NCBI GenBank assembly: GCA_035708265.1
Contig: DASSSV010000347.1
Location: 1-56,630, forward strand
Direction of reading: 5' to 3'
Length of the DNA stretch: 56,630 bases
DNA from: Thermomicrobiales bacterium
GTDB lineage: Bacteria > Chloroflexota > Chloroflexia > Thermomicrobiales > CADCWN01
In this document: in pieces, positions 1,953-54,825 of the stretch
Numbering within the stretch: the first letter of the stretch is position 1
Layout of the letters: the number at the start of each line of letters is the position of its first letter
Position numbers and translations under genes: made by a program
Notes under the pieces: model-generated
Databases searched by the model: none
Told to the model about the DNA's origin: nothing
Seen by the model: only the letters and a program-made list of their open reading frames with translations

Positions 1953-1970
1953 CCCTGTCCCCTTGTAGTC

Positions 1971-2104
1971 GGCAGACGGCAGACGGCAGACGGTAGTACC
2001 GGCTTACGCTTGCCGACCGTGTCGGCTTACGGACGCCGCCTCTTCCATCCTCCGGCGTCCGACTGCCGTCTCCTCACTGCCGTCTGCCGTCTGCCGTCTG
2101 CCGC
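1971..2104. repeat. Inverted heptad arrays: GGCAGAC x3-4 (1971-1998) and CTGCCGT-type x6 (2063-2104)
   Basis: Tandem 7-nt units read directly. The two arms are reverse complements separated by about 64 nt. The right arm lies inside the 3' end of the HemQ ORF. Confidence 0.9.
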
Positions 2105-2885
2105 CCCCGTCCAGCGCGTCGAGCGCCACGCGGATCTCCTGCGCGATGCCGGTGAAGATCGGCACGTCCCGCTCGGTGTAACTGCTCGACCGCGAGCCGC
2201 GCAGTTCCTCGACCAGATCGAGGAAGTCCTCGGGGTAGTCCGACTCGAACGCGACGACGAATTCCTGGTCGTCCAGGCCGAACGAGTAGGACGTGTTGAT
2301 CTTCACTGTCGGGTAGCGGTGCCCGAGCTTGATGTGCTCGCGCATCGCCGAGTTGCGCTCCTCGAAGGGGAGCGAGTACCAGGGGCGCGCCTTGACCATC
2401 GGGTAGACGAAGAGGTACTTCGCCTCGCCCGGCACGACCGTCAGCCGCGAGCCCTCCTGCCCCTCGTGGACGTGGTCGCGGACGTACTGCGAGCGCTTGG
2501 TCATCGCCAGGTAGGAGTGCGTCACCGTCAGGTAGGCGCCCAGGCCGGTCCCGTAGATGTGCGAGAGGAGCGCGCTCTGCTCCTCCAGCGTGTCGGTCAC
2601 CGACCAGAGCATCAGGTCGGCCGCGGTGTGCATCCCGACGAGGTTGTAGGAGCGCAGCACGTAGCAGCGCGTCGCCTCTTCCTCGATCGTCGCGGCCAGT
2701 TCCGCCTTCTGCCGCGCGCGCTCCTCGGCCGGCAGGCGCCGCCAGACCGGGTCGGCGGCGAAGATCGTGTACTTGACGACCTGCCGCCGCTCGCGCGGCT
2801 CGCGACCCAGCCGCGCCTGCAACCCGTGGTCCACCTCGTCGCCGGCGTCCCCGCGCCCGTTCTCGCCGGCCCGATAGTCGCTCAC
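2004..2885 (-). CDS. hemQ: Coproheme decarboxylase HemQ/ChdC (chlorite dismutase family)
   Basis: 293 aa with a GTG start. It shows KYLFVYPMVKARPWYSLPFEERNSAMREHIKLGHRY and YSFGLDDQEFVVAFESD, matching actinobacterial-type HemQ. The last ~45 aa are translated from the heptad repeat region, so the true C-terminus is uncertain. Confidence 0.8.
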   Translation of the reverse strand: MSDYRAGENGRGDAGDEVDHGLQARLGREPRERRQVVKYTIFAADPVWRRLPAEERARQKAELAATIEEEATRCYVLRSYNLVGMHTAADLMLWSVTDTLEEQSALLSHIYGTGLGAYLTVTHSYLAMTKRSQYVRDHVHEGQEGSRLTVVPGEAKYLFVYPMVKARPWYSLPFEERNSAMREHIKLGHRYPTVKINTSYSFGLDDQEFVVAFESDYPEDFLDLVEELRGSRSSSYTERDVPIFTGIAQEIRVALDALDGGGRRQTADGSEETAVGRRRMEEAASVSRHGRQA

Positions 2886-2907
2886 CGTCCCCCTCCTCGG
2901 GTCCCAT

Positions 2908-2935
2908 CTGCCGTCTGCCGTCTATCGTCTACCTC
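2908..2935. repeat. Heptad array CTGCCGT CTGCCGT CTATCGT CTACCTC
   Basis: Four tandem 7-nt units lie between the HemQ start and the aldo/keto reductase stop. The stop codon complement CTA (2929-2931) is inside the last unit. Confidence 0.85.
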
Positions 2936-4314: not shown

Positions 4315-6033
4315 GTGGACACCGCGACTGACGCCTTACTCGGCCAGACGATCGGCCGATATCGCCTCGAAGCCTTGATCGGGCAGGGCACGAGCGCGGC
4401 CGTCTACCGGGCGCGCGACCTCGTCGGCGGCGACCCGGTGGCACTGCGCGTCTTCGCCCGCGACGCGGCGGCCGACCAGGCATTCGGCGCCCGCTTCCGC
4501 AACGCCGCCGCCGCGGCCGCCGCCCTACGCCACCCCCACATCCTCCCGATCCTCGACTTCGGCGAGGACGGGGGCCGCGCCTACATCGCCCGCCCTTACC
4601 TCGCGGGGGGCTCGCTGCGCGGCCTGCTGGGGGCGCCGCTCCCGCTCGACCGGGTCGTCGGGCTGCTCCGCCCGATCGCCGACGCGCTCGACGACGCGCA
4701 CGCGCACGGCGTCGTCCACGGCGACCTCAAGCCCGGCAACCTGCTCCTCGCCGACGACGGCCGCCTGCTCCTGGCGGACCTCGGCACCGCCCACGCGCTG
4801 GCCGCGCGCAACAGCGTGGTCGCCGGCGCGCGGGGGCGCCACACCGGCACGCCGGAGTACCTGTCGCCCGAGCAGGCGCTCGGGCTGCCGCCGGACGGCC
4901 GGACCGACCTCTACGCGCTGGCGGTCATCGCCTACGAGGCGCTCACCGGCCGCCCGCCCTTCCGCGCGGCGGGGCCCGCCGACACGCCGCGGGCGCTCCT
5001 CCTGCGCCACCTCGACACCGCCCCGCCCCCGCCAAGCGCCCTGAACCCGGCCGTCGGCCCGGCGCTGGAGGCGGCGCTGCTGCGCGCGCTGGCCAAGGAC
5101 CCCGGCGCGCGCTTCCCTTCCGGCGCCGACTTCTTCGCGGCCCTGCTCGAGGCGCAGGCGGACGACGCCGCGGCCGCCCTCGCGGCGCTGACCAGCCAGC
5201 CGGCAGAGCCCAATTGCCGCGCGCGGGAAGAGCGAGACGCCGCCGCGGGACCGGGGAGCGGCGAGGACAGCGACGCCGCGCCGGTGGAAGGAGCGAGCGA
5301 CGTACCCCTCGGGGCCGGGGCGCACCGCGACGCGAGCGCCCCGGGCCGGCCCGGCGACGCCCGCCTCGCCGTCGCGCCGGCCGCGGCGCCCCATCCAGCC
5401 CGGGACGGCCGCCGGGGCGCCGAGCGGGCGCGCCGGACCTGGACGCCGTCGCGCTGGTGCTGGTGGGCGCTCGTCGCCTACGCGCTGGTCATGACCGCGC
5501 TGGCCATCGGTCGGGGGCCGGACGCGCTGGCCGGCGGGCGGCGCGACCCCGCGCCCGCGGCCGCCGTCCAGTCGAGTCCGGTCGCCAGCCCTGTCACCCC
5601 GACATCCACACGCGCCGCCACGGCCACGGCCACGGCGACATTCGCGCCGGTCGTCGCCCCGCCGACGGCGACCGCGACCCCGCGCCCGTCGCCCTCGCCC
5701 ACCGCGACGGCGACGGCCACCGCGCGCCCAGCGCCGTCGCCCACTACGACCGCGGTCCCGCCCACGGCCACACCGTCGCCCGTCCCGCCCACGCCGACGG
5801 CCACGGCGCCCCCCTTCGCCGCGACCGACCGCATCGGCGCGGGGCTCGTGGTCAACTTCCGGGCCGGGCCGGGCACCGACTACGCCATCGTCACCACCCT
5901 CGCGCCCGGCACGCCGCTCCGCGCCACCGGCGAGACCGCGACGGCCGACGGCGTCCTCTGGCGCCAGTTCGTCCTGGCCGACGGCCGCCCCGGTTGGGTC
6001 CGCGACCTCGACGTCGTGCCGGCCGGGACGTGA
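4315..6033 (+). CDS. Ser/Thr protein kinase with a TM segment, Pro/Thr/Ala-rich linker and C-terminal SH3b-like domain
   Basis: GTG 4315 follows GGAGAG. Kinase motifs are present: GQGTSAAVYRA, HGVVHGDLKPGNLLL, DLGTA, GTPEYLSPE. The TM segment is WWALVAYALVMTALAI. The tail GLVVNFRAGPGTDYAIVTTL...GWV resembles bacterial SH3. Confidence 0.85.
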   Translation: MDTATDALLGQTIGRYRLEALIGQGTSAAVYRARDLVGGDPVALRVFARDAAADQAFGARFRNAAAAAAALRHPHILPILDFGEDGGRAYIARPYLAGGSLRGLLGAPLPLDRVVGLLRPIADALDDAHAHGVVHGDLKPGNLLLADDGRLLLADLGTAHALAARNSVVAGARGRHTGTPEYLSPEQALGLPPDGRTDLYALAVIAYEALTGRPPFRAAGPADTPRALLLRHLDTAPPPPSALNPAVGPALEAALLRALAKDPGARFPSGADFFAALLEAQADDAAAALAALTSQPAEPNCRAREERDAAAGPGSGEDSDAAPVEGASDVPLGAGAHRDASAPGRPGDARLAVAPAAAPHPARDGRRGAERARRTWTPSRWCWWALVAYALVMTALAIGRGPDALAGGRRDPAPAAAVQSSPVASPVTPTSTRAATATATATFAPVVAPPTATATPRPSPSPTATATATARPAPSPTTTAVPPTATPSPVPPTPTATAPPFAATDRIGAGLVVNFRAGPGTDYAIVTTLAPGTPLRATGETATADGVLWRQFVLADGRPGWVRDLDVVPAGT

Positions 6034-6162
6034 GAGCGTGGGAGAGTGGGACCGTGGAGCGTGAGGGCGTGCTGAGAGTGCGCTGACCGCCTCGCTCTCG
6101 TAGGGGCCTGCGCCTACGAACCACGGCCCGCGGCCCTCGCTCTCGCGCTCCCACGCTCCCAC
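6033..6162. repeat. Long imperfect palindrome (GAGAGCGTGGGAGAGTGGGA... / ...GCGCTCCCACGCTCCCAC)
   Basis: A purine-rich left arm and a pyrimidine-rich right arm are partly complementary, and it sits intergenically after the kinase stop. It is weaker than the other palindromes. Confidence 0.4.
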
Positions 6163-6308
6163 CCCCCGCCCGCTCGCACGACCTGGCCCGCTTGTCCCTC
6201 CCGCCCGGGCCCTTTTTCCCATTGGCACGGCCTGGATGGGCCTGTACCCTGTGATGAGGCTGGCGCGGTGCCCAGCCCCGACACGCACGCGGAGAGCGAG
6301 AGCCCGAG

Positions 6309-8654
6309 GTGTATCGTCGACGCCCCACCCGGCCTTGCGCGCCACCCCCGGAGCGCGCCGACCGCGCCGGGGCCGGCGCGGCCACGTTGGATCACCACCT
6401 GCGGCGCAGTTCAGCCATCCTCTACGCGGTCGGCCTCGCCGTCGGGCTCTTCGTCAACAACACCCCCCTCGGCCGGGGCTTCAACCGCCTCGGCATCAAC
6501 CTCCTCGCCGTCTGCGCCCTGCTGTCGATCCTGGCCGTCTGGTACGTCCCCTGGCGCCGCTACCACCGCGACTGCTTCGCGCTCGTCACCGGCAGCGCCA
6601 TCGCCATCGTGGCCGTGCTCGTGCCCTGGAGCGGCGGCTGGCAGAGCCCCTTCACCGCCTATTACTTCTTCATCGTCGTCTTCGCCGCCCTCTACTATCG
6701 CCCGCCCCTCGCCCTGGCGCTCGGCCTGGCCGTCACCTTGGCCTGGCTGTCGCCGCTGCTCGGCGGGTATGCGCCGCCCGCGGGCCCCTACGCGCTGCCC
6801 CGGCTCCTGCTGATCGTCGGCGCGACCTCCCTGGCCATCGTCGTCGTCGCACAGGTGATGGCCGGGGAGATCCTGCGGCTCTACGGCGAGACGCTCGCGC
6901 GCCTCGAGGAGCGGGATCGGGTCAAGCGCGCGCTCGCCGAGAGCGAGCAGCGCTACCGCTCCCTGTTCGACCACAATCCCGACGCCGTCTTCTCCCTCGA
7001 CCCGGCCGGCCGCATCGTGAGCGCCAACGCCGCCATCGAGGCCCTCACCGGCTACTCCGTCGCCGAGGCCCTGGCGCTCGAGACGGCGCACCTCGTCGCG
7101 CCGGACGACCACGAGCGGATCCGGCGGCACTTCGCCGAGGCGCTCGCCGGCCGCGCCCAACACGTCGAGCTGGCGCTCCGCCACAAGCGCGGGCGGCCCG
7201 TCGACGCGCAGGTGACCCTGCTGCCGATCCGCGTCGACGGGCGGCTGGTCGGCGTCTTCGGCATCGCCAAGGACATCAGCGCCCGCCGCGCCTACGAGGA
7301 GCAGCTGCAGCACCAGGCGTTCCACGACCCGCTGACCGGGCTGCCCAACCGCGCCCTGTTCCTGGACCGCCTCGGGCACGCGCTCGACCACGCCCGGCGG
7401 CGGGGGGAGGGGGTCGCGGTCCTCTTCGTCGACCTCGACCGCTTCAAGGTCATCAACGACAGCCTCGGGCACGAGGCCGGGGACCTGCTGCTCATCGCGG
7501 TCGCCAACGCCCTCAAGGGCTGCCTCCGGCCGGAGGACACCGCCGCGCGGCTGGGCGGGGACGAGTTCACGGTCCTGCTGGAGCGGGTCGCCGACATCAC
7601 CGCGGCGGTGGCGGTCGCCGAGCGCATCCTGCGGGCCCTCCAGGCGCCGCTCGCGCTGAGCGGCTACGACCTCGTCGTCACGGGCAGCCTGGGGATCGCC
7701 CTCAGCACCCCCGAGCGGAATGACCCGGTCGAGCTGATGCGCCAGGCCGATGTGGCGCTCTATCGCGCCAAGGCGCAGGGGCGGGGCTGCTACCAGGTCT
7801 TCGACGCCACAATGAATGCCCGCGTGCTGGAGCGGCTGGAACTCGAGGCCGAGCTGCGGCGGGCGCTGGAGCGGGAGGAGTTCGTCGTCCACTACCAGCC
7901 GAAGGTCGCGCTGGCGACCGGCCGCCTGGAGGGGGTCGAGGCCCTGGTGCGCTGGCAGCACCCGGAGCGCGGCCTCCTCCCCCCGGCCGCGTTCATCGCG
8001 TTGGCAGAAGAGACCGGGCTGATCCGCCCGCTCGGGCGCTGGGTGCTCGTCGAAGCCTGCCGACAGGCGCGCGCCTGGCAGGCGCGGCACCCGGCCGGCC
8101 CGCCGCTGGTGATGGCGGTCAACCTGACCGCGCCGCAATTCCAGCAGCCGCACCTCGCGGCGGACATCGCGGCCATCCTGGCGGAGACGGGCCTGCCGCC
8201 GCACCTCTTGCAGTTGGAGATCACCGAGAGCGTGCTGATGGACGACGCGGCGGCCACGCTGGCGACGCTGGGGGCGCTCAAGCGCCTGGGGGTGCAACTC
8301 GCGATCGACGACTTCGGCACCGGCTACTCCAGCCTGGCCTACCTCAAGCGCTTCCCGGTCGACTGGCTCAAGGTCGACCGACGCTTCGTCGAGGGCCTGG
8401 GGACGGACGCCGAGGACACGGCGATCGTGCAGGCCGTGGTCAACCTGGCGGCGGCGCTCAAGCTGGCGGTGACCGCCGAGGGCGTGGAGACGGCCGACCA
8501 GGTGGCGCGCTTGCAGGCACTGGGCTGCGCCCTCGGGCAGGGCTTCTACTTCGCCCGGCCGCTCCCGGCCGCGGCGGTCGACGCGCTCCTGGCCGCCGGC
8601 CGCGACTGCTCGCCCCTGGCGAAGTACGAAGTACGAGTGGCGAGCGACGAGTGA
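6309..8654 (+). CDS. Membrane-anchored PAS-GGDEF-EAL protein (c-di-GMP cyclase/phosphodiesterase)
   Basis: Multi-TM N-terminus and a PAS-like region (SEQRYRSLFDHNPDAVFSLD). RLGGDEFTVLL gives the GGDEF motif; EALVRWQHP and QLEITES give the EAL motifs. The start is uncertain (GTG 6309 or downstream). The stop TGA 8652-8654 lies inside the heptad array. Confidence 0.85.
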   Translation: MYRRRPTRPCAPPPERADRAGAGAATLDHHLRRSSAILYAVGLAVGLFVNNTPLGRGFNRLGINLLAVCALLSILAVWYVPWRRYHRDCFALVTGSAIAIVAVLVPWSGGWQSPFTAYYFFIVVFAALYYRPPLALALGLAVTLAWLSPLLGGYAPPAGPYALPRLLLIVGATSLAIVVVAQVMAGEILRLYGETLARLEERDRVKRALAESEQRYRSLFDHNPDAVFSLDPAGRIVSANAAIEALTGYSVAEALALETAHLVAPDDHERIRRHFAEALAGRAQHVELALRHKRGRPVDAQVTLLPIRVDGRLVGVFGIAKDISARRAYEEQLQHQAFHDPLTGLPNRALFLDRLGHALDHARRRGEGVAVLFVDLDRFKVINDSLGHEAGDLLLIAVANALKGCLRPEDTAARLGGDEFTVLLERVADITAAVAVAERILRALQAPLALSGYDLVVTGSLGIALSTPERNDPVELMRQADVALYRAKAQGRGCYQVFDATMNARVLERLELEAELRRALEREEFVVHYQPKVALATGRLEGVEALVRWQHPERGLLPPAAFIALAEETGLIRPLGRWVLVEACRQARAWQARHPAGPPLVMAVNLTAPQFQQPHLAADIAAILAETGLPPHLLQLEITESVLMDDAAATLATLGALKRLGVQLAIDDFGTGYSSLAYLKRFPVDWLKVDRRFVEGLGTDAEDTAIVQAVVNLAAALKLAVTAEGVETADQVARLQALGCALGQGFYFARPLPAAAVDALLAAGRDCSPLAKYEVRVASDE

Positions 8655-8742
8655 CGAGCGATGAGTGGGGGGCGGGGGCTTCGCCGGGGCGACTCGTCGC
8701 TCATCGCCCATCGCTCGACACGCATTCGTCATTCGTACTTCG
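8621..8742. repeat. Heptad hairpin element: GAAGTAC/GAGCGAC/GAGTGAC/GAGCGAT arm and complementary CTCGTCG/CTCATCG/TTCGTCA/TTCGTAC arm
   Basis: Seven tandem 7-nt units (8621-8669), a G-rich loop, then a pyrimidine-rich arm (8691-8742) that is partly reverse-complementary. Confidence 0.85.
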
Positions 8743-8960
8743 GACGGGACGAACGGCCCGGCGCCGCAGGCCGTTCGTCGCGGCCGGAACGGGCAGAAAT
8801 CCCCTGGCCGGCGGGTGGGGGAAGTACTAGCCAGACGCGGCGGAATGGGGCATTGTGCCGGGGCATCGCACTCCCTATCGTAGGAGGGGCGGACGAACGG
8901 AATCCCGGCCGCGGCGGCGCCAAGGGCGGGTCGCGGCGGGACAGCGATAGGGCCAGACCG

Positions 8961-11951: not shown

Positions 11952-13801
11952 TGTCGACCTATCAGCGCTTGCTGGCCGCCGGCATCCGGTTGTGGCAGGG
12001 GCCGCCGGCCTTCCCGCGGTCGTTGCAGCTCGAGTGGCGCTTCGTGATCGTCCGCTGGCTGGGCATCGGCATCATGACGCCGGGCCTCCTGCTGGCGCAC
12101 CTCGGCTCGGGGCGGACGGTGGCGGGGTACGCGGTCCTCCTGCTGGCCGCGGTCTACAACGCCGTCGTACAGGTCGTGCTGTTGCGGCGCCCGGCGATCT
12201 TCGCCAGCGGCTACATCACCGTGATCGGCGACGCCCTGCTCAACATCGCCATGATCAACATCGGCGGGGGCTTCGACTCGCCGTTCTACTATCTCCTCTT
12301 CACCGCGACGATCTCGGCCGCGATGCGCTACGGCTACGGCCCCTCGCTGGCGACGGTGACGATCTTCGTCGCCCTCGACGGCGTGGAGGGGCGGCTGGGC
12401 CGGCACGCGCTCGACGGCATCTACGTCTTCCGCTCCGGCTTCCTCTTCATCACGGTGGTCCTGGCCGGCTACCTCAGCGAGCAGGCGCGGCGCGCCGAGG
12501 CGGCGCTGCAGGAGCGCCTGCGCCAGGCCGACCTCCTCAATCGCTCCACCGCGCTGCTCGGCGCGAGCCTTGAGTTCGAGCGGGTGCTGCACGCCGTCGC
12601 CGCGGCCGCCTGCCGCCTCTTCGACGGCGCGAGCGTCGCCCTGCGCCCGGCCGCCAACCTGGCCGAGCGCGCAGGCATCGAGGCGGCCGCCATCGAGCAC
12701 CCCTGCCCCGGCACCGGCGAGGCGGCGCGCGCGGGGCTGGTCGCCCTCTGCGACCGCTACGCAGGCGCAGCCTATCGACCGCGCGAGGCGCGCGACCGGC
12801 TCGGCGCACGCGAGCGGCTGCCCTCGGGCGAGCAGGCGCTGGTCTTCAACCTGGCCTTGCCGACCCGCCCGACCGCGCTGGCGACGCTCGCGGTGGGCCT
12901 GCCGGCCGGGCGACCGGCGCCCGCGCTCGACCCCGACATCCTCGACTCCTTCGTCGAGCGGACGACGCTGGCGCTCGAGAACGCCGGACTCTACCGCACG
13001 CTCGCCAGCCGCACCGACGACCTCCAGCGCGCCTACAGCGACCTGGCGATCGCGCACCAGGAGCTCCTCAGCGTCGACGAGATGAAGACCAATTTCCTGG
13101 CGAACGTGTCGCACGAGCTGCGCACGCCGCTCAGTTCGATCCGCTCCTTCTCCGAACTCCTCCTCTCCTACGACGACGACGTCAGCGTCCAGCAGGAGTT
13201 CCTGGGCATCATCAACCAGGAGAGCGAACGCCTGACCCGGCTGGTCAACGACGTGCTCGACATCACCAAGATCGAGGCGGGCCAGTTGCATTGGGACATG
13301 CAGGCGCTCGACGTGGCGACCCTCCTGCACGATAGCGCCCGCACCTACGCCCCCCTGATCCAGGAGCAGGGGCTGACCTTCCGGCGGGAGATCGCCGACG
13401 ACCTCCCAGCGATCTGCGCCGACCGCGACCGCCTGCAGCAGGTGATCGCCAACCTCCTGGTCAACGCGATGAAGTTCACCCCGGCCGGGACGGTCCGGCT
13501 CGCCGCGCGGGCCGGCGGCGGGGAGGTCCGCATCGCCGTGTCCGACACCGGCATCGGGATCGCGCCGCAGGACCGCGAGCGCATCTTCGAGAAGTTCCAG
13601 CAGGTCGGCGAGACGCTCACCGGCAAGCCCAAGGGGACGGGCCTCGGCCTGGCGATCTGTCGGGACATCGTCGCCCATCACGGGGGCCGCCTCTGGGTGG
13701 AGTCGCGCCTCGGCGCCGGCAGCACGTTCATCGTCGCGCTGCCGGCCCTCCCCGTCGCGATCCCGACAGCGGAGGCGGCCCTGATCAGTGCCGAGCGATG
13801 A
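11948..13801 (+). CDS. Membrane sensor histidine kinase (multi-TM, GAF-like, HisKA, HATPase_c)
   Basis: The H-box is FLANVSHELRTPLSSI and the G-boxes are DTGIGI and GTGLGLAI. The start GTGATG overlaps the receiver stop. The stop TGA 13799-13801 is inside the heptad array. Confidence 0.85.
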   Translation: MMSTYQRLLAAGIRLWQGPPAFPRSLQLEWRFVIVRWLGIGIMTPGLLLAHLGSGRTVAGYAVLLLAAVYNAVVQVVLLRRPAIFASGYITVIGDALLNIAMINIGGGFDSPFYYLLFTATISAAMRYGYGPSLATVTIFVALDGVEGRLGRHALDGIYVFRSGFLFITVVLAGYLSEQARRAEAALQERLRQADLLNRSTALLGASLEFERVLHAVAAAACRLFDGASVALRPAANLAERAGIEAAAIEHPCPGTGEAARAGLVALCDRYAGAAYRPREARDRLGARERLPSGEQALVFNLALPTRPTALATLAVGLPAGRPAPALDPDILDSFVERTTLALENAGLYRTLASRTDDLQRAYSDLAIAHQELLSVDEMKTNFLANVSHELRTPLSSIRSFSELLLSYDDDVSVQQEFLGIINQESERLTRLVNDVLDITKIEAGQLHWDMQALDVATLLHDSARTYAPLIQEQGLTFRREIADDLPAICADRDRLQQVIANLLVNAMKFTPAGTVRLAARAGGGEVRIAVSDTGIGIAPQDRERIFEKFQQVGETLTGKPKGTGLGLAICRDIVAHHGGRLWVESRLGAGSTFIVALPALPVAIPTAEAALISAER

Positions 13802-13906
13802 GCGACGAGGGGAGTGACGAGTGACGAGTGACGAGTGACGAGGGGACTGGGGGAACGCTCGTCCGTCCTCCGTCCTCCGTCTCGCTCATCGCTCATCGCT
13901 CATCAC
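13793..13906. repeat. Heptad hairpin element (GAGCGAT, GAGCGAC, GTGACGA x4 / CCTCCGT x2, CTCATCG x3)
   Basis: Tandem 7-nt units are read directly. GAGCGATGAGCGACGAG pairs with CTCGCTCATCGCTCATCGCTC. Confidence 0.85.
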
Positions 13907-13926
13907 CGGAGTGGGAGGGAGCGGAG

Positions 13927-15858: not shown

Positions 15859-16440
15859 ATGCCCGCGATAACCCTGCTCGTAGAGTGCCCGGCCGCCACC
15901 GAAGAGTCCCCCGCCGCGCCCGTCATCTCACCCGCCAGCCCACCTGTGGAGGTGGCCCGCGCGACCGGCGACTTCGCCGTCCACGGCGAGACCTTCTCGC
16001 TCGTCACGGGCGGCGACACGCCCGCGTACCACGACCTGACCGAACTCGTGCGGGCGGTCGTCGCGCGCGCCGGGGTGGCGGCAGGGACGCTCCTGGTCAG
16101 CACGCGACACACCACCTGCGCGGTCGTGGTGCAGGAGCACGAGCCGCTGCTGTTGCGCGACATGGCCGACCGCCTGCGGCGCTACGCCGGCGCGCACGAG
16201 GACTACCGGCACAACGACTTCGCGGTGCGCACGGTCAACATGTGCGACGGCGAGTGCGCCAACGGCCACGCCCACTGTCAGCACCTCCTGCTCGGCGCCG
16301 CTGTAACCCTCCCGGTGCTCGACGGCCGGCCGGTGCTCGGCCTCTGGCAGCGCGTCTTCCTGGTCGAGCTGGACCGCCCCCGCCTGCGACACTACTCGGT
16401 GCAGGTGATGGGCGTGCGGGACGGAGACGATAGACGATAG
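15859..16440 (+). CDS. YjbQ/UPF0047 family protein (secondary thiamine-phosphate synthase-like) with an N-terminal extension
   Basis: STRHTTCAVVVQEHEP...DYRHND...GHAHCQHLLLG...LGLWQRVFLVELD matches the YjbQ family. The stop lies inside the CGATAGA heptads. Confidence 0.7.
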   Translation: MPAITLLVECPAATEESPAAPVISPASPPVEVARATGDFAVHGETFSLVTGGDTPAYHDLTELVRAVVARAGVAAGTLLVSTRHTTCAVVVQEHEPLLLRDMADRLRRYAGAHEDYRHNDFAVRTVNMCDGECANGHAHCQHLLLGAAVTLPVLDGRPVLGLWQRVFLVELDRPRLRHYSVQVMGVRDGDDRR

Positions 16441-16449
16441 ACGATAGAC
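16421..16449. repeat. Heptad array ACGGAGA CGATAGA x3
   Basis: Tandem 7-nt units at the yjbQ-like 3' end. Confidence 0.8.
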
Positions 16450-26111: not shown

Positions 26112-26121
26112 GGGAGACGAT

Positions 26122-26223
26122 TTCACCGCAGAGACGCAGAGAACGAGAGGGAGGACGAGGAGAGAAAAATGAAGAACATTGCTCTGCGTCCTCTCCTTCG
26201 TAACTCTGCGCCTCTGCGGTGAA
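26122..26223. repeat. Long palindromic element with TTCACCGCAGAG...CTCTGCGGTGAA termini
   Basis: The left arm TTCACCGCAGAGACGCAGAGAACGAGAGGGAGGACG pairs with the right arm CGTCCTCTCCTTCGTAACTCTGCGCCTCTGCGGTGAA. It fills the nuoF-nuoG gap. Confidence 0.85.
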
Positions 26224-26235
26224 TAGAGGGGAGCA

Positions 26236-30003: not shown

Positions 30004-30008
30004 GGACG

Positions 30009-30136
30009 TTCACCGCAGAGGCACAGAGACACGGAGAACGAGGAGAGAAGACGGAGAAAATACGAGGGACGAAGGACGAACTCAATTCCGTCTCCCCTCT
30101 CTTCGTCTCTCTGTGCCTCTGTGCCTCTGCGGTGAA
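30009..30136. repeat. Long palindromic element, same family as 26122-26223
   Basis: TTCACCGCAGAGGCACAGAGACACGGAGAACGAGGAGAGAAGACGGAG pairs with CTCCGTCTCCCCTCTCTTCGTCTCTCTGTGCCTCTGTGCCTCTGCGGTGAA. It lies in the nuoI-nuoJ gap. Confidence 0.9.
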
Positions 30137-30246
30137 CATCCCCCGCACGGCGAGATTGTGTGCCGCTGCACAAGCGGCGCGGGATGTGGTAGGCTAGCGG
30201 GCGGCCTTGAGGGAGGCCGGGGGCGACGCGGGGAGTTCGGGGGGAC

Positions 30247-31132: not shown

Positions 31133-33043
31133 GTGAACTACGTCTGGCTCGCGCTGCTCTTCCCGCTGGCCGGGTTCGCGATCAACGCCCTGCTCGGTGC
31201 GTGGCTGCCGCGCCGCGCGCACGGGATCGTCGCCTCCGCCGCGGTCGGCCTGGCCTTCCTGACCTCGCTGGCCGTCTTCTTCGACCTGCTGAGTCTGCCC
31301 GCGGCCGACCGCCACCGCGACCTGGTCCTCTACCAGTGGGTCGCGGCGGGCGACTTCCACGCCGCGCTCGGCGCCTGGCTCGACCCGCTCTCGGCGCTGA
31401 TGCTCCTGATCGTGACCGGCGTCGGCTTCCTGATCCACGTCTACGCGACCGGCTACATGGCCGACGACGAGGGGCAGCGCCGCTTCTTCGCCTTCCTCAA
31501 CGTCTTCGTCCTGGCGATGCTCATCCTGGTCCTGGCCGACAACTTCATGCTCCTGCTGGTCGGCTGGGGCGGCGTCGGCTTCGCCTCCTACGCCCTGATC
31601 GCCCACTACTACTGGCGACCGGCAGCGGCCGCCGCGGCGGTCAAGGCGTTCGTGGTCAACACGATCGGCGATGTCGGGATGATGCTCGGCATGTTCCTGA
31701 TGTGGCGCACCTTCCGCTCACTCGACTACGCCACCGTCTTCGCCGCCGCGCCGTCGCGGCTGGCCGGCGCCGGCGGCACGGCGACCGCGATCACGCTGCT
31801 GCTGCTGGTCGGCGCGCTGGCGAAGTCGGGCCAGCTCCCGCTGCACGTCTGGCTGCCCGACGCGATGGAGGGCCCGACGCCGGTCTCCGCCCTGATCCAC
31901 GCCGCCACGATGGTCACCGCCGGCGTCTACCTGCTGGCGCGCGCCTGGCCGCTCTACGAGCAGGCGCCGGCGACGTTGACCGTGATCGCCTGGATCGGCG
32001 CGATCACCGCGCTCTTCGCCGCGACCGTCGGGATGGTCCAGCCGAACATCAAGCGCGTGCTGGCCTACTCCACGATCAGCCAGCTCGGCTACATGTTCCT
32101 GGCCGCGGGCGTCGGCGCCTACAGTGCCGGCATCTTCCACCTGATGACCCACGCCTTCTTCAAGGCGCTCCTCTTCCTCGCGGCCGGCGCGGTGATCCAC
32201 GCGATCGGCGGCACCGAGGACCTGGCGGGGATGGGCGGGCTGCGTCGCGCACTGCCGGTCGCCTACGCCGGCTTTCTGGTCGGCGGGCTCGCGATCTCCG
32301 GCATCCCGCCCTTCTCCGGCTTCTTCTCGAAGGACGAGATCATCTGGGCCTCGCTCACCAGCGGGCGGGGCAACGGCGCCCTCTGCGCCATCGCGCTCGT
32401 CACCGGCGGGCTGACCGGCTTCTACGTCTTCCGCGCCTTCTTCCTCGCCTTCCACGGCGAGTCGCGCGTCGCGCCGGGCGTCCACATCCACACGCCCGGC
32501 GCCGCGATGCGCGTCCCGATGATCGTCCTGACCGTCTTGGCGTTCGCCGGCGGCTTCGTGTTGATCCCGAACGTCACCTACGCCTTCGACGACTACCTGG
32601 AGCCGGCCTTCGCCTACCCGGTCGCGCTGCACGCGCCGACCGTGGTCGCCTCGGGCGCGGGCTACTGGGGGCTGGCGATCCTGGCCGCGGTGCTCGGCGC
32701 GATCGGCGTCGGCACGGCCTACCTGATCTACGTCCGCCGCCCGGTCCTCGCCACCGACCTCGCGGAGCACTACCGCGGTGCCTACCGCTTCCTGCTCAAC
32801 CGCTACTACATCGACAACCTCTACGACGCCGTCTTCGTCCGCCCGTTCGGCGCGCTGGCGCGCTTCCTCGGCGACGGCGTGGACCGCGGGATCAACAGCA
32901 TCGTCGACGGCATCGGCGTGGTGCTGCGCGAGGCCAGCTTCGGCATGCGCGACCTCCAGAGCGGCTACGTCCGCAACTACGCGCTCGTGATCCTCGGCGG
33001 CGTGGTCCTCCTCGTCGCCTACGTCATCTACGCGGGCATCTGA
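31133..33043 (+). CDS. nuoL: NADH-quinone oxidoreductase subunit L
   Basis: GTG start. WDPLS, GWGGVGFASY.LI, KSGQLPLH.WLPDAMEGPTPVSALIHAATMV.AGVYL. The stop TGA overlaps the first heptad of the downstream array. Confidence 0.95.
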   Translation: MNYVWLALLFPLAGFAINALLGAWLPRRAHGIVASAAVGLAFLTSLAVFFDLLSLPAADRHRDLVLYQWVAAGDFHAALGAWLDPLSALMLLIVTGVGFLIHVYATGYMADDEGQRRFFAFLNVFVLAMLILVLADNFMLLLVGWGGVGFASYALIAHYYWRPAAAAAAVKAFVVNTIGDVGMMLGMFLMWRTFRSLDYATVFAAAPSRLAGAGGTATAITLLLLVGALAKSGQLPLHVWLPDAMEGPTPVSALIHAATMVTAGVYLLARAWPLYEQAPATLTVIAWIGAITALFAATVGMVQPNIKRVLAYSTISQLGYMFLAAGVGAYSAGIFHLMTHAFFKALLFLAAGAVIHAIGGTEDLAGMGGLRRALPVAYAGFLVGGLAISGIPPFSGFFSKDEIIWASLTSGRGNGALCAIALVTGGLTGFYVFRAFFLAFHGESRVAPGVHIHTPGAAMRVPMIVLTVLAFAGGFVLIPNVTYAFDDYLEPAFAYPVALHAPTVVASGAGYWGLAILAAVLGAIGVGTAYLIYVRRPVLATDLAEHYRGAYRFLLNRYYIDNLYDAVFVRPFGALARFLGDGVDRGINSIVDGIGVVLREASFGMRDLQSGYVRNYALVILGGVVLLVAYVIYAGI

Positions 33044-33193
33044 CGAATGACGAAGGACGAAGGACGAAGGACGAAGGACGAGTTGGTGCGACGGGCGGCT
33101 ACTCCCGCCACCGCCTCTCGCCCCTCGTCACTCGTCACTCGTCACTCGTCACTCGCCATTCGTACTTCGTACTTCGTACTTCGTACTTCGAGG
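33042..33193. repeat. Heptad hairpin element: GACGAAG-type x6, then CTCGTCA x4 and TTCGTAC x4
   Basis: 16 tandem 7-nt units in two arms (33042-33083 and 33124-33193) fill the nuoL-nuoM gap. The last degenerate unit, TTCGAGG, provides the only Shine-Dalgarno-like GAGG before the nuoM GTG. Confidence 0.9.
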
Positions 33194-33195
33194 TA

Positions 33196-36304: not shown

Positions 36305-36327
36305 GCCGCCAGCTGATGGCTGGCGGC
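36305..36327 (+). terminator. GC-rich hairpin after nuoN
   Basis: GCCGCCAGC, loop TGATG, then GCTGGCGGC, 9 nt after the nuoN stop. No U-tract. Confidence 0.4.
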
Positions 36328-38983: not shown

Positions 38984-40387
38984 TCACCCGGCCGGTGCGA
39001 GGAGCCCCTGCGCCACCGCGTAGTCTGCGTCGAGCGACTTGTAGCCGACCTGGTCGAAGAGGACGGTCACTTTGCCGCCCTCATGGCGCTGCACCAGGCC
39101 CTCGCCCCACGACTCGTGGACGACGCGGCTGTTGAGCGGGAAGCGCTGCGCCGCCTCGTCCTCCGCGACGGCCACGCCCGCGTCGCAGTTGTCGCAGTTG
39201 CAGCAGGGGTCGTCGTACTCCTCACCGAAATAGTTGAGCAGGTACTCGCGGCGGCAGTCGCGCACCTCGGCATAACCGCGCATCATCTCGACGCGCGAGC
39301 GCTCGAACTCGCGGCGCGCCTCATCCTTCCCGCCCGCGGCGAAGTAGCGCCGCAGGCCCAGATCCTCCGGGCGGTAGAAGAGGATGGCGCGCGCCGGCTC
39401 GCCGTCCCGCCCGGCCCGACCGATCTCCTGGTAGTAGGCGTCGACCGAGTCGCTGACGTCGTAGTGGAAGACGAAGCGGACGTTCGGCTTGTCGATGCCC
39501 ATGCCGAAGGCGGTCGTCGCGACGATGACCGGGCACTCGTCCTCCATGAAGGCGCGCTGCGTCTCCTCGCGCTCCGCCGCCTTCATCCCGCCGTGGTAGT
39601 GGCGCGCGGGGATGCCCTGCTCGCGCAGCGCCGCGGCCAGGTCCTCGGCGCGCCGCCGCGTCGCGGCGTAGATGATGCCCGGTTGCGGCTCGGCCGCGAC
39701 GCGCTCCAGCAACGCCCGCTGCTTGGCCGGCTCGTCGGCGAACCGCTCGACGCCGAGCCAGATGTTCGGGCGGTCGAAGCCCCGGACGACGACGCGCGGC
39801 TCGCGCATCCCCAGCCGGGTGACGATCTCCTCGCGGATGGGCGGCGAGGCCGTGGCGGTGAGGGCGAGGACGGTCGGGTGGCCCAGCTCCTCGATCACCC
39901 GGCCAAGTTCCAGGTATTCGGGCCGGAAATCGTGCCCCCACTCGCTGATGCAATGCGCCTCGTCCACGACGACGAGCGTCGGCTGCGCCTCTGTGAGCCG
40001 CGCCAGCGTGTCGCCGTGCGCGAACTGCTCGGGCGCGAGGAAGATGAAGTCGAGGTCCCCGGCGCGGAGATCGGCGAAGACGTCGCGGCGCTCGCCGGCC
40101 GAGATGGTCGAGTTGACCAGCGCGGCCTCGCCCGCGTCCAGTTCCTCCACCGCCTCGACCTGGTCCCGCTGGAGCGCGATCAGCGGCGAGACGACGACGA
40201 CCGGGCCGCCCTCCAGCGCCGCCGCGATCTGGTAGATCGCCGACTTGCCCGAGCCGGTGGGCATCACCGCGAGCGTGTCGTGGTCGTCCAGGATGGAGCG
40301 GATCGCGGCCGCCTGGCCCGGCCGCAGGGCGTCGAACCCGAAGTCGTCGCGCGCGATGCGCGCGATCCGCGAGCGTTTCACGATCAT
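38984..40387 (-). CDS. recQ: RecQ-family ATP-dependent DNA helicase
   Basis: FGFDALRPGQ, MPTGSGKS, VVDEAHCISEWGHDFRPEY, LALTATA, YQE.GRAGRDG and a Zn-binding CCNCDNC. Confidence 0.9.
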   Translation of the reverse strand: MIVKRSRIARIARDDFGFDALRPGQAAAIRSILDDHDTLAVMPTGSGKSAIYQIAAALEGGPVVVVSPLIALQRDQVEAVEELDAGEAALVNSTISAGERRDVFADLRAGDLDFIFLAPEQFAHGDTLARLTEAQPTLVVVDEAHCISEWGHDFRPEYLELGRVIEELGHPTVLALTATASPPIREEIVTRLGMREPRVVVRGFDRPNIWLGVERFADEPAKQRALLERVAAEPQPGIIYAATRRRAEDLAAALREQGIPARHYHGGMKAAEREETQRAFMEDECPVIVATTAFGMGIDKPNVRFVFHYDVSDSVDAYYQEIGRAGRDGEPARAILFYRPEDLGLRRYFAAGGKDEARREFERSRVEMMRGYAEVRDCRREYLLNYFGEEYDDPCCNCDNCDAGVAVAEDEAAQRFPLNSRVVHESWGEGLVQRHEGGKVTVLFDQVGYKSLDADYAVAQGLLAPAG

Positions 40388-40445
40388 CGGTGTTTCCTCA
40401 TATGGCAGCGATGGTCACGATAACGAGTGGCGGGCCTTACGCCGC

Positions 40446-41354: not shown

Positions 41355-41497
41355 CGCGCCCCCCTGATCTCACGACACACGGGCGACCGCGCCCGCGTCA
41401 CGCGAGCGGGTGCCGTCCGGGGGCCGCGAACGCGCCGACCGGTCGCGCCACGGCCCATTTCGTGCCGGGATGCAAACGGCGTGCCAGGAGACGGGGC

Positions 41498-42289: not shown

Positions 42290-42443
42290 CGTACGGGTCT
42301 TCCCCCGTACCTGCCCACGATCCCCGGACGACCGCCGCGCGCAGCGCCTCGCGACGCCGGGAACGGACGGCCTTCGGACCGCTGGCCGGCGCGGGGGCCG
42401 GAAGGGTGTTGAGGGAATCGGAGACTCGGCACGCAGCCGACCC

Positions 42444-42977: not shown

Positions 42978-42997
42978 GTCGCACTCCTTCCACTCGC

Positions 42998-43624: not shown

Positions 43625-43627
43625 CCT

Positions 43628-44248: not shown

Positions 44249-44271
44249 GCCCCACCTCCTACTTCAGTGCC

Positions 44272-44400
44272 GAGCGATGAGCGATGAGCGATGAGTAGCA
44301 GTCAGCCATCAGCAGTCAGCCATCAGCGTTCAATGGTGCGGCTGATGACTGATCGCTGACGGCTGATAGCCCACTCGTCGCTCATCGCTCATCGCTCGCT
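44272..44400. repeat. Nested heptad/14-mer hairpin element
   Basis: The outer arms are GAGCGAT x3 and CTCATCGCTCATCGCTCG. The inner arms are AGTCAGCCATCAGC x2 and the complementary GCTGATGACTGATCGCTGACGGCTGAT. It lies between the XPB stop and the HD-gene start. Confidence 0.85.
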
Positions 44401-46183: not shown

Positions 46184-46198
46184 GGGCTCACTCCGTTC

Positions 46199-46310
46199 GC
46201 GGTCGTCGGTCGTCAGTTTAGACGGCAGGCGGCAATACCGGCTTCCCCTCGCTTGCCATGTTGCCGCGCAGAAGCCGTCACTGACGACTGACGACTGGCG
46301 ACTGACGACC
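46199..46310. repeat. Heptad hairpin element (GGTCGTC x2 / TGACGAC x4)
   Basis: The arms GCGGTCGTCGGTCGTCAG (46199-46216) and CTGACGACTGACGACTGGCGACTGACGACC (46281-46310) are reverse-complementary. This is the only locus with the pyrimidine-rich arm first. Confidence 0.8.
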
Positions 46311-46312
46311 CT

Positions 46313-49481: not shown

Positions 49482-49490
49482 CCTCAACCG

Positions 49491-49595
49491 AGGACTCAGG
49501 ACTCAGGACTCAGTAGGCTCGGTGCATGGGGTATGCCAGACGGCTAGCCCCGAGCACCGGATCACTGAGTCCTGAGTCCTCAGTCCTGAGTCCTG
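49491..49595. repeat. Heptad hairpin element (AGGACTC x3 / GAGTCCT x4)
   Basis: Complementary arms flank a 50-nt spacer that itself contains GCTCGG...CCGAGC. It sits between the convergent tRNA-Ser and rpoN genes, so it is a likely bidirectional terminator. Confidence 0.85.
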
Positions 49596-49599
49596 CGCG

Positions 49600-52036: not shown

Positions 52037-52160
52037 GGCCGGGGCGCGACGGGGGCCGCGAGACGACAGCGGGGCACGGCGCTCCTCCGGGACGCGGCGA
52101 ATGGCGCGGCGCGTCAGGTCGCGCGCCGCGCGCATTCTACACCGCGCGGCGGGGATACGT

Positions 52161-52302
52161 GACCAAAACACAGAGGCACGGAGGCACGGAGAGACGAGGA
52201 GAGAGGACGAAGAAGGAAGGACGAAGCATGAGGTACGAAGGACGAATACATATCGTCCTTCTCTCTTCGTTCTCTACGTCTCTGCGTCTCTGTGTTTTGG
52301 TC
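52161..52302. repeat. Long palindromic element related to the nuo-operon palindromes
   Basis: GACCAAAACACAGAGGCACGGAGGCACGGAGAGACGAGGAGAGAGGACGAAG pairs with CGTCCTTCTCTCTTCGTTCTCTACGTCTCTGCGTCTCTGTGTTTTGGTC. It shares the CAGAGGCAC.GAG and ACGAGGAGAGA strings with 30009-30136. Confidence 0.9.
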
Positions 52303-53830: not shown

Positions 53831-54664
53831 GTGGCGGTAGACGTGTTGACGCCGGCGGCCCTCACCCCCCGGCCCCCCCGCCCAATGCTGGGAGAGGGAG
53901 AGTGGCCGGGAGAAGCGGCGGGAATCTTCCTGGCCGGCGCTCTCGAAGAGCAGCACCCTGTTCAATGCAGAGCCTCCCCCCTCGCCCGGGATTGGGAGAG
54001 GCGGGTGCCCTCTGAGCGCGGGGGGAGGGCCGCCATCTTCCCGGCCGGCGCGCTCGACCCGGCACGGGTGGTCCTGCCGGACGGCGGCACGCCGGATGCC
54101 AGGGCGTGGCGCCGGGAGGCGGGGCGCGCCGACGGCCTGACGCTCATCGCCGCGCTCCCCGCGGGCGACCGCTGGCGGGTCTGCGGCGAACTCACCCTCA
54201 GCCTGCGCCCGGGCGGGCGGGGTAGCCTGGACCGGGTCTACGTCGCGCCGGCGGCGCGGCGGCTGGGCGTCGGGACGGCGCTCGTCCGCGCGGCGCTCCG
54301 CCACGCCCGCGCGGCCGGCCTCGCCACTCTCGAGGAGTACATCCCCAACCTCTATGCGGTCACCGGAGGCGCCGTGACGCGCTACGAGCCGATCGGGGCG
54401 GAACTCGGCGGCGTCCGCTCGCTCGGCACGGCCGCGCGGGCCTGCGCGGCGGAGCGGCAGGTCTGCCGGGTGGCGCGGATCGCGCGCGCGTGGCACACTG
54501 GGGAGTGGGGGCGCGAGGGGCGCATCGGCGCGGCGCTGGAGATGCCCCTGGCCGCGCCGCTCGCGCCGCCGCGCACAGGCGACGCACGGCTGGCCGATCT
54601 GGAGGCGGCGATCGTCGCGGAGATATACGCGACGATCGGCGCGGCCAGCCTCGCGGCCCTCTGA
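53831..54664 (+). CDS. GNAT-family N-acetyltransferase-like protein (start uncertain)
   Basis: LDRVYVAPAARRLGVGTALVRAALRHARAAG resembles the acetyl-CoA-binding motif A. The first ~80 codons consist of GGGAGAGG-type hairpin and duplicated sequence and may be non-coding. GTG 54068 is an alternative start. Confidence 0.45.
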   Translation: MAVDVLTPAALTPRPPRPMLGEGEWPGEAAGIFLAGALEEQHPVQCRASPLARDWERRVPSERGGRAAIFPAGALDPARVVLPDGGTPDARAWRREAGRADGLTLIAALPAGDRWRVCGELTLSLRPGGRGSLDRVYVAPAARRLGVGTALVRAALRHARAAGLATLEEYIPNLYAVTGGAVTRYEPIGAELGGVRSLGTAARACAAERQVCRVARIARAWHTGEWGREGRIGAALEMPLAAPLAPPRTGDARLADLEAAIVAEIYATIGAASLAAL

Positions 54665-54811
54665 CGAAGTACGAATGACGAAGTACGAAGTACGAATAGG
54701 CGCGAGGGGGCGTCCTGCCTGTTCGTCAGCCCCTCGGCGGTGAACGATCGCCCCGCTCATCACTCGTCATTCGTCATTCGTCATTCGTACTTCGCACCTC
54801 GTACTTCGTCG
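54663..54811. repeat. Heptad hairpin element (GACGAAG/TACGAAT x5, then CTCGTCA/TTCGTCA/TTCGTAC x8)
   Basis: Tandem 7-nt units in two partly complementary arms (54663-54697 and 54756-54811). The upstream TGA stop overlaps the first unit. Confidence 0.85.
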
Positions 54812-54825
54812 TTGGGGGTGGCCGG

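Follow-up and report, generated by a model that had tools for sequence, protein, structure and literature searches.

Tandem-heptamer hairpins between stop codons and ribosome-binding sites in a Thermomicrobiales genome and its relatives

Introduction

In cyanobacteria, the 7-bp short tandemly repeated repetitive (STRR) sequences form hairpins between the co-transcribed genes hupS and hupL, where they have been proposed to stabilize the transcript or to couple translation (PMC2670836). In Xanthomonas, the heptamer GGGAATC occurs in 70-75 convergent inverted pairs per genome, which are potential stem-loops (Rehm et al. 2015, PMC4692102). The heptamer arrays of Xanthomonas (GGGAATC) and Nostoc (GGGGAYT) are about 90% intergenic, they are transcribed, and they are located close to or overlapping the stop codon; the position of the Xanthomonas heptamers is kept between species, their length and sequence being variable (PMC4692102). 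The present study deals with the hairpins built from tandem units of 7 nucleotides (nt) that are present between the genes of a Thermomicrobiales bacterium (GenBank assembly GCA_035708265.1, contig DASSSV010000347.1), and in particular with the one separating the genes nuoL and nuoM of the respiratory nuo operon. The whole stretch of 56,630 nt that was analyzed is referred to below as the window. In an earlier note on this DNA, no described repeat family with this organization could be named; the cyanobacterial STRR sequences and the Xanthomonas GGGAATC heptamers had, however, already been described.

The over-representation of heptanucleotide repeats in bacteria has been known since 1990-2007, and to our knowledge neither its cause nor its function has been established. 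Heptanucleotide simple sequence repeats have been reported to be generally over-represented in prokaryotes (Mrazek et al. 2007, as cited in PMC4692102). (GATAGRA)n satellites are known in Chloroflexus aurantiacus, a member of the Chloroflexota (PMC6749651), and the TAACTGA repeats of Beggiatoaceae and cyanobacteria are located mainly just upstream of start codons (PMC4679880). Repetitive extragenic palindromic (REP) sequences, another class of small intergenic palindromes, are near-identical 20-40 bp copies that carry the head GTAG or CGTC and are mobilized by REP-associated tyrosine transposases (RAYT) (PMC3733652). We found no paper on the repeats of Thermomicrobiales in the literature, and the paper on the genome of Thermomicrobium roseum is silent on them.

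Period-7 Arrays and Hairpins in the Window

Exact tandem arrays of at least 2.5 copies were counted for period 7 and for the neighboring periods. The window carries 18 arrays with period 7, against five, five and one with periods 5, 6 and 8, respectively, and none with periods 9-15; in 100 dinucleotide-preserving shuffles of the window, the mean number of period-7 arrays was 0.39 and the maximum was 2. Based on a gene map drawn up from codon log-odds and checked with Pfam, 15 of the 18 arrays are located in non-coding DNA, which accounts for only 14.5% of the window (binomial p = 1.4e-10), and the remaining three overlap the 3' ends of open reading frames (ORFs). The pattern is real and strongly non-random. 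The description given in the earlier note is for the most part correct: the intergenic enrichment was borne out, and Tandem Repeats Finder gave period-7 arrays at each of the sites which it listed. Its inventory, however, was incomplete: three hairpins (26112-26225, 30004-30140, and 52160-52300) and a period-8 relative (6020-6175) had been overlooked.

The 14 loci examined, which are numbered E01 to E14 along the window (Table 1), include 12 long imperfect hairpins, with a length of 115-156 nt, and two single arrays. As had been predicted, the hairpin arms keep a 7-nt register, and 12 of the 14 loci fold better than dinucleotide-shuffled controls on both strands, with z-scores ranging from -3.7 to -12.6. 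The two-armed layout described previously applies to these 12 loci but not to the sites at 2907-2923 and 16425-16449, which have no partner arm. The arrays consist of 7-nt units placed head to tail without any spacers, unlike CRISPR arrays, in which repeats of 24-48 bp alternate with unique spacers of similar length; this is in line with the original opinion that they are not CRISPR arrays. Scanning the whole window at the Rfam gathering thresholds yielded four tRNAs only.

The element between nuoL and nuoM (E09) can be taken to illustrate this anatomy. Three tandem arrays were identified there by Tandem Repeats Finder: GACGAAG in 5.7 copies (33042-33081), CTCGTCA in 5.7 copies (33124-33163), and TTCGTAC in 4.6 copies (33159-33190). 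The 5' arm, (TGACGAA)2(GGACGAA)4, is followed by a GC-rich central mini-hairpin and by a 3' arm composed of (CTCGTCA)5 and then (TTCGTAC)4.6. The stop codon TGA of nuoL is the first triplet of the array, and the element ends 5 nt 5' of the GTG start codon of nuoM. The z-score of the fold is -5.70 as RNA and -5.59 as DNA, and none of the 200 shuffles folded equally well. The partner of the 5' arm is the CTCGTCA array in the minimum-energy fold of the RNA and the TTCGTAC array in the DNA fold. The blocks of unit variants are mirrored across the arms, the GAAGTAC-type units being outermost and the GAGYGAC-type units inside in E04, E09, and E14. The mirroring is not exact for single variants, and the two arms may contain different numbers of units (6 versus about 10 in E09).

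Some of the arrays are translated. The ORF of the HemQ/chlorite dismutase family at 2004-2885 (minus strand) encodes 293 residues, of which the last 33 or so are encoded by E01, and the HemQ-like homologs mostly have 230-270 residues; the GGDEF-EAL ORF terminates within E04. This corrects the earlier description, in which a period of 7 was held to be incompatible with coding repeats. The repeat elements create or replace C-terminal tails here. Extensions of ORFs into the arrays confuse gene callers, and the arrays may also break short-read assemblies.

Related Genomes and Taxonomic Spread

The window comes from an uncultured, soil-type member of the Thermomicrobiales. No record of exactly the same NuoL protein turned up. 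The best match to it (91%) was found in a metagenome-assembled genome of the same order; the other NuoL matches show 72% identity or less, the nearest named ones belonging to the Thermomicrobiales and the Chloroflexota. The nuo operon was compared with those of five other Thermomicrobiales (L001, L002, L003, L084, and L085). The idea that the 7-nt architecture might recur in relatives was corroborated: it is present at many junctions of these five operons, always with different units. Many of the relatives' junctions of 80-160 nt are hairpins with tandem-heptamer arms, such as GTTGTCG / GTTATCA ... ACTGATA / ACCGACA, GAAGTAC ... TTCGTAC, TTGCGGA ... ATCCGCA, TCGTCGG ... CGACGAC, and GCGGTAG ... 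CTACCGC. The six Thermomicrobiales loci (152 kb, including the window) carry 53 period-7 arrays with 27 distinct units, against 10, 10, two and one arrays with periods 5, 6, 8, and 9, respectively. The units GAAGTAC and GGCAGAC recur at non-orthologous sites in related genomes.

The occupancy of the nuo junctions varies between the genomes. The nuoF-nuoG hairpin is present in all five full operons, and up to eight nuo junctions carry an element in L002. The nuoL-nuoM junction carries a hairpin in four genomes and none in L084 or L085, and at the nuoH-nuoI junction it is the window which has no hairpin. In two more distant Chloroflexota (L086 and L087, with 55-56% NuoL identity), the nuo operons are compact and no arrays were found.

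The control consisted of 80 nuo loci of other phyla (1.4 Mb; NuoL homologs with at most 50% identity), taken among the matches listed. Only 36 period-7 arrays were counted there, mostly in six loci, and several of them, in Thermoanaerobaculia and Planctomycetota, show the two-armed architecture. An exact search for (GTACGAA)3 yielded at least 120 metagenome contigs with GC contents of 31-69%, on which other heptamer arrays co-occur. Because of these counts in the relatives, the control loci, and the metagenomes, the elements can be described as dense in the Thermomicrobiales clade and scattered widely among bacteria. The sequence (GTACGAA)3 was also observed in two viral or giant-virus contigs of IMG/VR (L208, 6132-6152, and L209, 6812-6832).

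Position and Polarity of the Hairpins

The position of the hairpins was measured at 33 co-directional gene junctions. The outermost stem starts at a median distance of 2 nt (interquartile range 0-3) 3' of the stop codon, and the stem ends at a median distance of 14 nt (interquartile range 8-26) 5' of the next start codon. A GGAG-type ribosome-binding site sits in the leftover tail or in the stem base; it lies inside the stem or within 8 nt of it at about eight of the 33 junctions. Contrary to the claim that the elements mark almost every operon boundary, which was overstated, only 12 of the 32 window gaps of at least 40 nt carry a hairpin, none of the three divergent gaps does, and several of the hairpins are located inside the nuo operon, which consists of 14 genes, at the nuoF-nuoG, nuoI-nuoJ, and nuoL-nuoM junctions.

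This location is difficult to reconcile with the terminator role previously suggested, since termination at three sites within the nuo operon of the window, and at up to eight in that of L002, would prevent the subunits encoded further downstream from being made. In favor of terminators or attenuators that work independently of U-tracts are the stable stems, which lie directly 3' of stop codons, and the ordinary hairpins found after some genes of the window (840-875, 18055-18102, and 36305-36327), which also have no T-tracts. The stems, however, span 80-130 nt with a mismatch every 7 nt, unlike the compact stems of terminators; no T-tract follows the stem at any of the window elements, and the consensus scan gave none at E07-E09. 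The terminator role is thus unsupported, and we regard it as very improbable.

The two arms differ consistently in composition. In the 37 hairpins of the six genomes, pairs with G in the 5' arm and C in the 3' arm are more numerous than the reverse (593 versus 362), and in 35 hairpins the G-first pairs are at least as many as the reverse ones. All the arrays with a downstream partner but one are G-rich, and all those with an upstream partner are C-rich or neutral. Among the matches listed for (GTACGAA)n in the metagenomes, 44 arrays have their complementary arm downstream and six have it upstream, the corresponding figures for the high-GC contigs being 32 and one. The earlier description of the purine-rich arm as the 5' one holds in the window, but since the arms of L002 and L003 are rich in G and T, the general rule is that the G-rich arm lies 5'; that the polarity is identical on both strands was confirmed. 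The single arrays located just 3' of stop codons (E02, E06, L001 6728-6762, and that of L213, a relative described below) are all four G-rich on the sense strand, which hints that the polarity may be tied to the direction of transcription, four arrays being too few for any conclusion to be drawn.

The sense strand of the same 37 hairpins is not favored over the antisense strand: its stability is greater in 15 cases and lower in 22 (Wilcoxon p = 0.29), and G·U pairs show no sense excess (111 versus 135 in antisense).

The arrays were also considered as possible suppliers of stop codons in all three frames behind a gene. The number of frames with a stop was 2.03 on average versus 2.19 in shuffled sequences, and 1.30 versus 1.18 in the first 45 nt, and this idea was rejected.

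Turnover of the Arrays between Close Relatives

At the closest distance available, the window and the Logan contig L212 (SRR26663020) show three mismatches in 3078 nt (99.9% identity) and no indels. A single arm of E01 contains all three differences (2072, 2086, and 2087), which have the same offset within heptamers spaced 14 nt from one another. They deprive the L212 version of about 10 kcal/mol of fold energy with no compensating change, and they also alter the C-terminal tail of the HemQ-like protein. A mutational hot spot, conversion, or an error in short-read assembly could account for them. As far as these differences go, the arrays evolve faster than their flanks. The genomes L084 and L210 (99.9% identity) differ by 17 single-nucleotide polymorphisms in 16 kb, none of which is located in the four hairpins, and by no indels, and L085 and L211 are identical over 22 kb, so this last pair is uninformative on copy number. 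That the arrays are not assembly artefacts is supported by the fact that E01 and E02 have the same copy numbers in the independent Logan assembly and that the arrays of L084 and L210, which represent another member of the Thermomicrobiales in two different samples, are identical.

These comparisons bear on the previous suggestion that the elements are contingency (phase-variation) tracts or sequence-specific protein-binding arrays. Tandem repeats are classic substrates for slippage, but the copy number is equal in the two 99.9% strain pairs (window/L212 and L084/L210), and the arrays are located downstream of genes, rather than in promoters or 5' coding regions, none of the three divergent gaps carrying a hairpin. 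The binding of one cold-shock domain to each unit of a heptamer array has been discussed as a possibility (PMC4679880), but a single sequence-specific protein is unlikely because 27 distinct units occur in 152 kb. Neither role is supported by these data, and this explanation can be considered extremely improbable.

At identities of about 85-91%, the arrays present at the same junction have other units and other lengths. The nuoL-nuoM gap measures 152 nt and carries GACGAAG-type units in the window versus 201 nt and GAGCGAT-type units in L001, the NuoL proteins being 91% identical. The hemQ junction is the only stretch that does not align between the window and L213 (GCA_017884215.1; about 85% DNA identity), the flanking genes being alignable: at positions 5257-5385 of L213, which are orthologous to E01, there is a G-rich array, (GAGCGAC)6, after the stop codon and a C-rich one, (CGACCTT)3, before the ribosome-binding site, with no complementarity between the two. 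Every shared junction likewise differs between L084 and L085 and between L002 and L003. In all six Thermomicrobiales, on the other hand, the motif TTGTG-N5-CTGCACAA-N8-10-GATGTGnTAGGCT, located about 20 nt 3' of E08 (30154-30195 in the window), is invariant, which indicates that sequence-specific intergenic signals are conserved at this divergence and that the sequences of the hairpins are not. This motif, which lies upstream of nuoJ, resembles an internal promoter combined with an inverted repeat of the operator type, which suggests that nuoJ-nuoN may be separately transcribable.

The question arises whether the elements could be non-autonomous mobile elements, either miniature transposable elements with inverted repeats (MITEs) or elements resembling REP sequences and bacterial interspersed mosaic elements (BIMEs), whose copying would rely on a transposase from another part of the genome. 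Terminal inverted repeats and flanking target duplications characterize MITEs. An all-against-all BLAST of the window elements showed that some arms are common to several loci: the 3' arm of E09 is 90% identical to E14 over 50 nt, and arms are also shared between E05 and E09 (100% over 34 nt) and between E08 and E13 (89% over 44 nt). This sharing, the recurrence of GAAGTAC and GGCAGAC at non-orthologous sites in relatives, and the uniform polarity, which a single palindromic ancestor would account for, would all fit a mobile origin. The likeness is limited to the tandem arrays, however, since the window elements never share loops or termini and show no target-site duplications; nearly each locus has a unit mix of its own, as attested by the 27 units in 152 kb, and at orthologous junctions the units are replaced in place, which is not a matter of presence or absence. 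Nothing like the near-identical 20-40 bp copies headed by GTAG or CGTC was found among the window elements, and no RAYT, IS200/IS605, Y1, or other transposase was detected with Pfam among the 40 proteins of the window. We therefore hold a mobile origin to be improbable.

Proposed Origin and Possible Effects

We consider, with moderate confidence, that the elements are palindromes of heptanucleotide simple sequence repeats of the STRR kind, that they are generated locally and confined to the interval separating a stop codon from the ribosome-binding site that follows, and that they form intercistronic stem-loops when they are transcribed. The generating mechanism and the RNA-level effect are what we infer from the anatomy, enrichment, position, polarity, turnover, and taxonomic spread described above, and the part of this explanation dealing with the origin is better supported than the part dealing with the function. 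The fact that only the arrays are shared between loci, together with the in-place replacement of the units, makes the origin look local and independent of the sequence. In this process, a short array beside a stop codon would lengthen in 7-nt steps via replication slippage and would be copied in inverted orientation, and the arms would be kept roughly mirrored through template switching within the palindrome; both arms would afterwards drift and re-homogenize independently. The elements would persist only in this interval or downstream of the last gene, because a period of 7 breaks reading frames and because promoters and ribosome-binding sites must stay intact; this confinement is in part directly visible and in part a matter of interpretation.

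As regards the effects, the elements are presumably transcribed as intercistronic stem-loops, since they occur inside operons and have no T-tracts. In a polycistronic mRNA, they would form imperfect stem-loops of 80-130 nt, the base of which would put the upstream stop codon beside the downstream ribosome-binding site, where a terminating ribosome would melt it. Translational coupling classically involves a stop codon placed next to a downstream ribosome-binding site, and an mRNA segment is classically protected by a stable 3' stem. The likeliest effects would thus be the protection of mRNA segments and the coupling of downstream translation to upstream termination; transcription would not be terminated by the elements.

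Several points weigh against this explanation. The recurrence of elements at the same nuo junctions may reflect selection for a hairpin rather than tolerance, and the strict G-first polarity is not predicted by neutral slippage alone. Slippage also leaves the choice of the period 7 unaccounted for. No change in copy number was seen in either of the 99.9% strain pairs, and no intermediate states of slippage or template switching were observed. On the side of function, the stability and the G·U pairs of the sense strand give no positive evidence for selection on the sense RNA.

It is possible, if on the unlikely side, that the hairpins are selected functional RNAs, namely intercistronic stabilizers, RNase III processing sites, or translational couplers, the sequence of which slippage leaves free to change. 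Their repeated occurrence at equivalent nuo junctions of five or six genomes (the operons of the more distant Chloroflexota being compact), the strong z-scores of the folds, the joining of the stop codon to the ribosome-binding site by the stem base, and the similar roles proposed for the STRR hairpins (PMC2670836) all point in this direction. The G-first polarity could likewise be an RNA constraint, for example if an early C-rich arm were exposed to Rho. Against this stands, besides the lack of any excess of stability or G·U pairs on the sense strand, the fact that the occupancy of the nuoL-nuoM and nuoH-nuoI junctions varies between genomes and that elements are also present after unrelated genes, beside a tRNA gene, and between convergent genes. 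The L212 variant of E01 is weaker by about 10 kcal/mol and uncompensated, and the arrays of L213 at a single junction are mutually non-complementary.

A bolder proposal, which we put forward as a doubtful one, is that one sequence-independent process is at work in many phyla, generating palindromes in 7-nt steps exactly between the stop codon and the ribosome-binding site, with the G-rich arm always first and this polarity enforced at the RNA level, as a general coupling or stabilizing device in long operons such as nuo; the elements would then be a widespread and unrecognized form of operon punctuation and not junk repeats. The cause of the polarity would lie in the RNA, for instance in the loading of Rho onto a C-rich arm transcribed first.

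Should the hairpins serve translational coupling or the protection of mRNA segments, they would have a bearing on how the stoichiometry of the products of long operons is set in high-GC bacteria. If they are neutral, they provide a good system in which to study slippage and the maintenance of palindromes.

Catalogue of the Elements and Other Features of the Window

Table 1. The 14 repeat loci of the window, with their coordinates, repeat units, z-scores of folding (two values where both are given) and genetic context.
Element	Position	Architecture	z-scores	Context
E01	1965..2108	arms (GGCAGAC)3.4 / (CTGCCGT)6	-11.5 and -9.2	gap between two minus-strand genes (HemQ-like and AhbAB-like)
E02	2907..2923	single array (TCTGCCG)2.4	not significant	starts at the stop codon of an aldo-keto reductase gene
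E03	6020..6175	period-8 relative, arms (GGGAGCGT)n / (CCCACGCT)n	-3.7 and -4.3	starts at the stop codon of a Ser/Thr kinase gene
E04	8615..8745	5' arm GAAGTAC x2, then GAGYGAC-type units; 3' arm CTCRTCG-type units, then TTCGTCA + TTCGTAC	-6.4 and -8.4	overlaps the final 11 codons of the GGDEF-EAL gene
E05	13785..13910	arms (GAGCGAY / GAGTGAC)n and (TCCGTCC)(TCGCTCA)n	-3.7 and -4.4	between histidine kinase and GGDEF/HD-GYP genes
E06	16425..16449	single array (AGACGAT)3.6		across the stop codon of a UPF0047 gene
E07	26112..26225	hairpin, arms CACCGCAGAGACGCAGAGAACGAG... and ...CTCTGCGCCTCTGCGGTG	-9.2 and -11.3	nuoF/nuoG gap
E08	30004..30140	hairpin, period 7-8, like E07 and E13	-9.3 and -12.6	3' of nuoI; a conserved motif resembling a promoter comes next, upstream of nuoJ
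E09	33041..33195	hairpin, see text	see text	gap from the nuoL stop (33041-33043) to the GTG start of nuoM (33196)
E10	44265..44400	(GAGCGAT)3 + 14-mer x2, mirrored by (GGCTGAT-type)4 + (CTCATCG)3	-11.6 and -12.6	from the stop of the XPB helicase gene to the start of an HD-domain gene, both on the minus strand
E11	46195..46312	arms (GGTCGTC)2 / (ACTGACG)4	-6.1 and -4.0	between the WYL/Helicase_C_3 gene and the XPB gene, minus strand
E12	49484..49599	arms (AGGACTC)3.3 / (CTGAGTC)4.4	-10.0 and -8.1	convergent: 3' end of tRNA-Ser (49483, plus strand) and rpoN stop (49600, minus strand)
E13	52160..52300	hairpin like E07 and E08	-8.9	anti-sigma (zf-HC2) gene / alpha/beta hydrolase gene, minus strand
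E14	54660..54815	arms (GAAGTAC / GAATGAC)5 and (TCGTCAT)(TTCGTAC)n	-5.3 and -6.5	from the stop of a GNAT gene to a histidine kinase gene

In addition to these loci, a single array (GCCGCGC)3.4, composed almost purely of G and C and having no partner arm, was observed at 49124-49147, upstream of a pair of tRNA-Ser genes. Perfect GC-rich hairpins are located 3' of several genes, including nuoN (840-875, 16518-16558, 18055-18102, and 36305-36327). They show neither T-tracts nor any 7-nt periodicity, and they are probably the ordinary 3'-end hairpins of this genome, forming a class distinct from the heptamer elements.

As far as the nuo operon is concerned, a near-consensus match of the sigma-70 type, TTGACA-18-GATAAT (11/12), is located just upstream of the first nuo gene (20545-20574). 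Between nuoD and nuoE, there is an insertion (23453-24043) consisting of a DUF433 gene and a small downstream ORF, which may be a toxin-antitoxin pair; in L084 and L085, a gene of the Uma2 family has been inserted and separates nuoI from nuoJ. Foreign insertions are tolerated in the nuo operon of this clade. The minus strand also carries a cluster of DNA-repair helicase genes (38984-49021), which encode a RecQ-like protein (38984-40387), XPB/ERCC3 (44399-46183), and a protein with Helicase_C_3 and WYL domains (46313-49021), the XPB gene being flanked by E10 and E11.

Comparison with Known Repeat Systems

Among the small intergenic palindromes, REP sequences, BIMEs, and MITEs resemble the elements in that they are often present in operons and have known effects on mRNA stability, but they differ in having a head motif, a RAYT, fixed termini, or target duplications, none of which is present here. 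The reports on heptamer simple sequence repeats in general are similar with regard to the preference for period 7, the intergenic location, the occurrence in Chloroflexota and scattered phyla, and slippage as the suggested cause; they deal mostly with direct repeats, and a two-armed hairpin extending from the stop codon to the ribosome-binding site was not their focus.

By their architecture, the elements are of the same kind as the STRR hairpins and the Xanthomonas heptamer pairs. In the case of Xanthomonas, one unit with a run of three G residues is dominant and has been read as quadruplex-forming. Many unit types are present here, and most of them have no such run, so the elements are not of the quadruplex type: GACGAAG, GAGTGAC, GGCAGAC, GAGCGAT, and AGGACTC contain no GGG, the only such run being that of the period-8 element E03 (GGGAGCGT), whereas a quadruplex calls for at least four units with runs of at least three G residues. 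A second difference is that the paired form dominates here and fills the entire interval between the stop codon and the ribosome-binding site.

The resemblance to the STRR sequences lies in the 7-bp tandem units, the many dispersed intergenic sites, and the hairpins between co-transcribed genes: an excess of period 7, a dispersed intergenic distribution including sites within operons, and inverted pairs were all found. Related heptamers are also present here, namely the L002 arms (GTTATCA)n / (TAACTGA)n and units of the TTGTCAG type, as in csR1.1 of Nostoc (PMC2408588, PMC4679880). The host, however, is a high-GC member of the Chloroflexota and not a cyanobacterium, and the units of the window (GACGAAG, GAGTGAC, GGCAGAC, etc.) are not the named STRR1-3 sequences, so that in the narrow sense of the term, which involves named units and a cyanobacterial host, the elements are not STRR sequences, the published TAACTGA repeat being present only in the arms of L002. 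Nearly every locus, moreover, mixes several unit variants in mirrored blocks, which differs from the STRR sequences. The G-first polarity and the abutment on the stop codon have been quantified here, and no statement on them was found for STRR sequences in the literature compared.

With respect to these known systems, the Thermomicrobiales elements add a clean and dense example in a new phylum, along with four regularities: they abut the stop codon, they end just before the ribosome-binding site, their G-rich arm is almost always the 5' one, and their units are replaced between close relatives. These regularities and the spread across phyla make the question as to why heptamer hairpins exist more testable.

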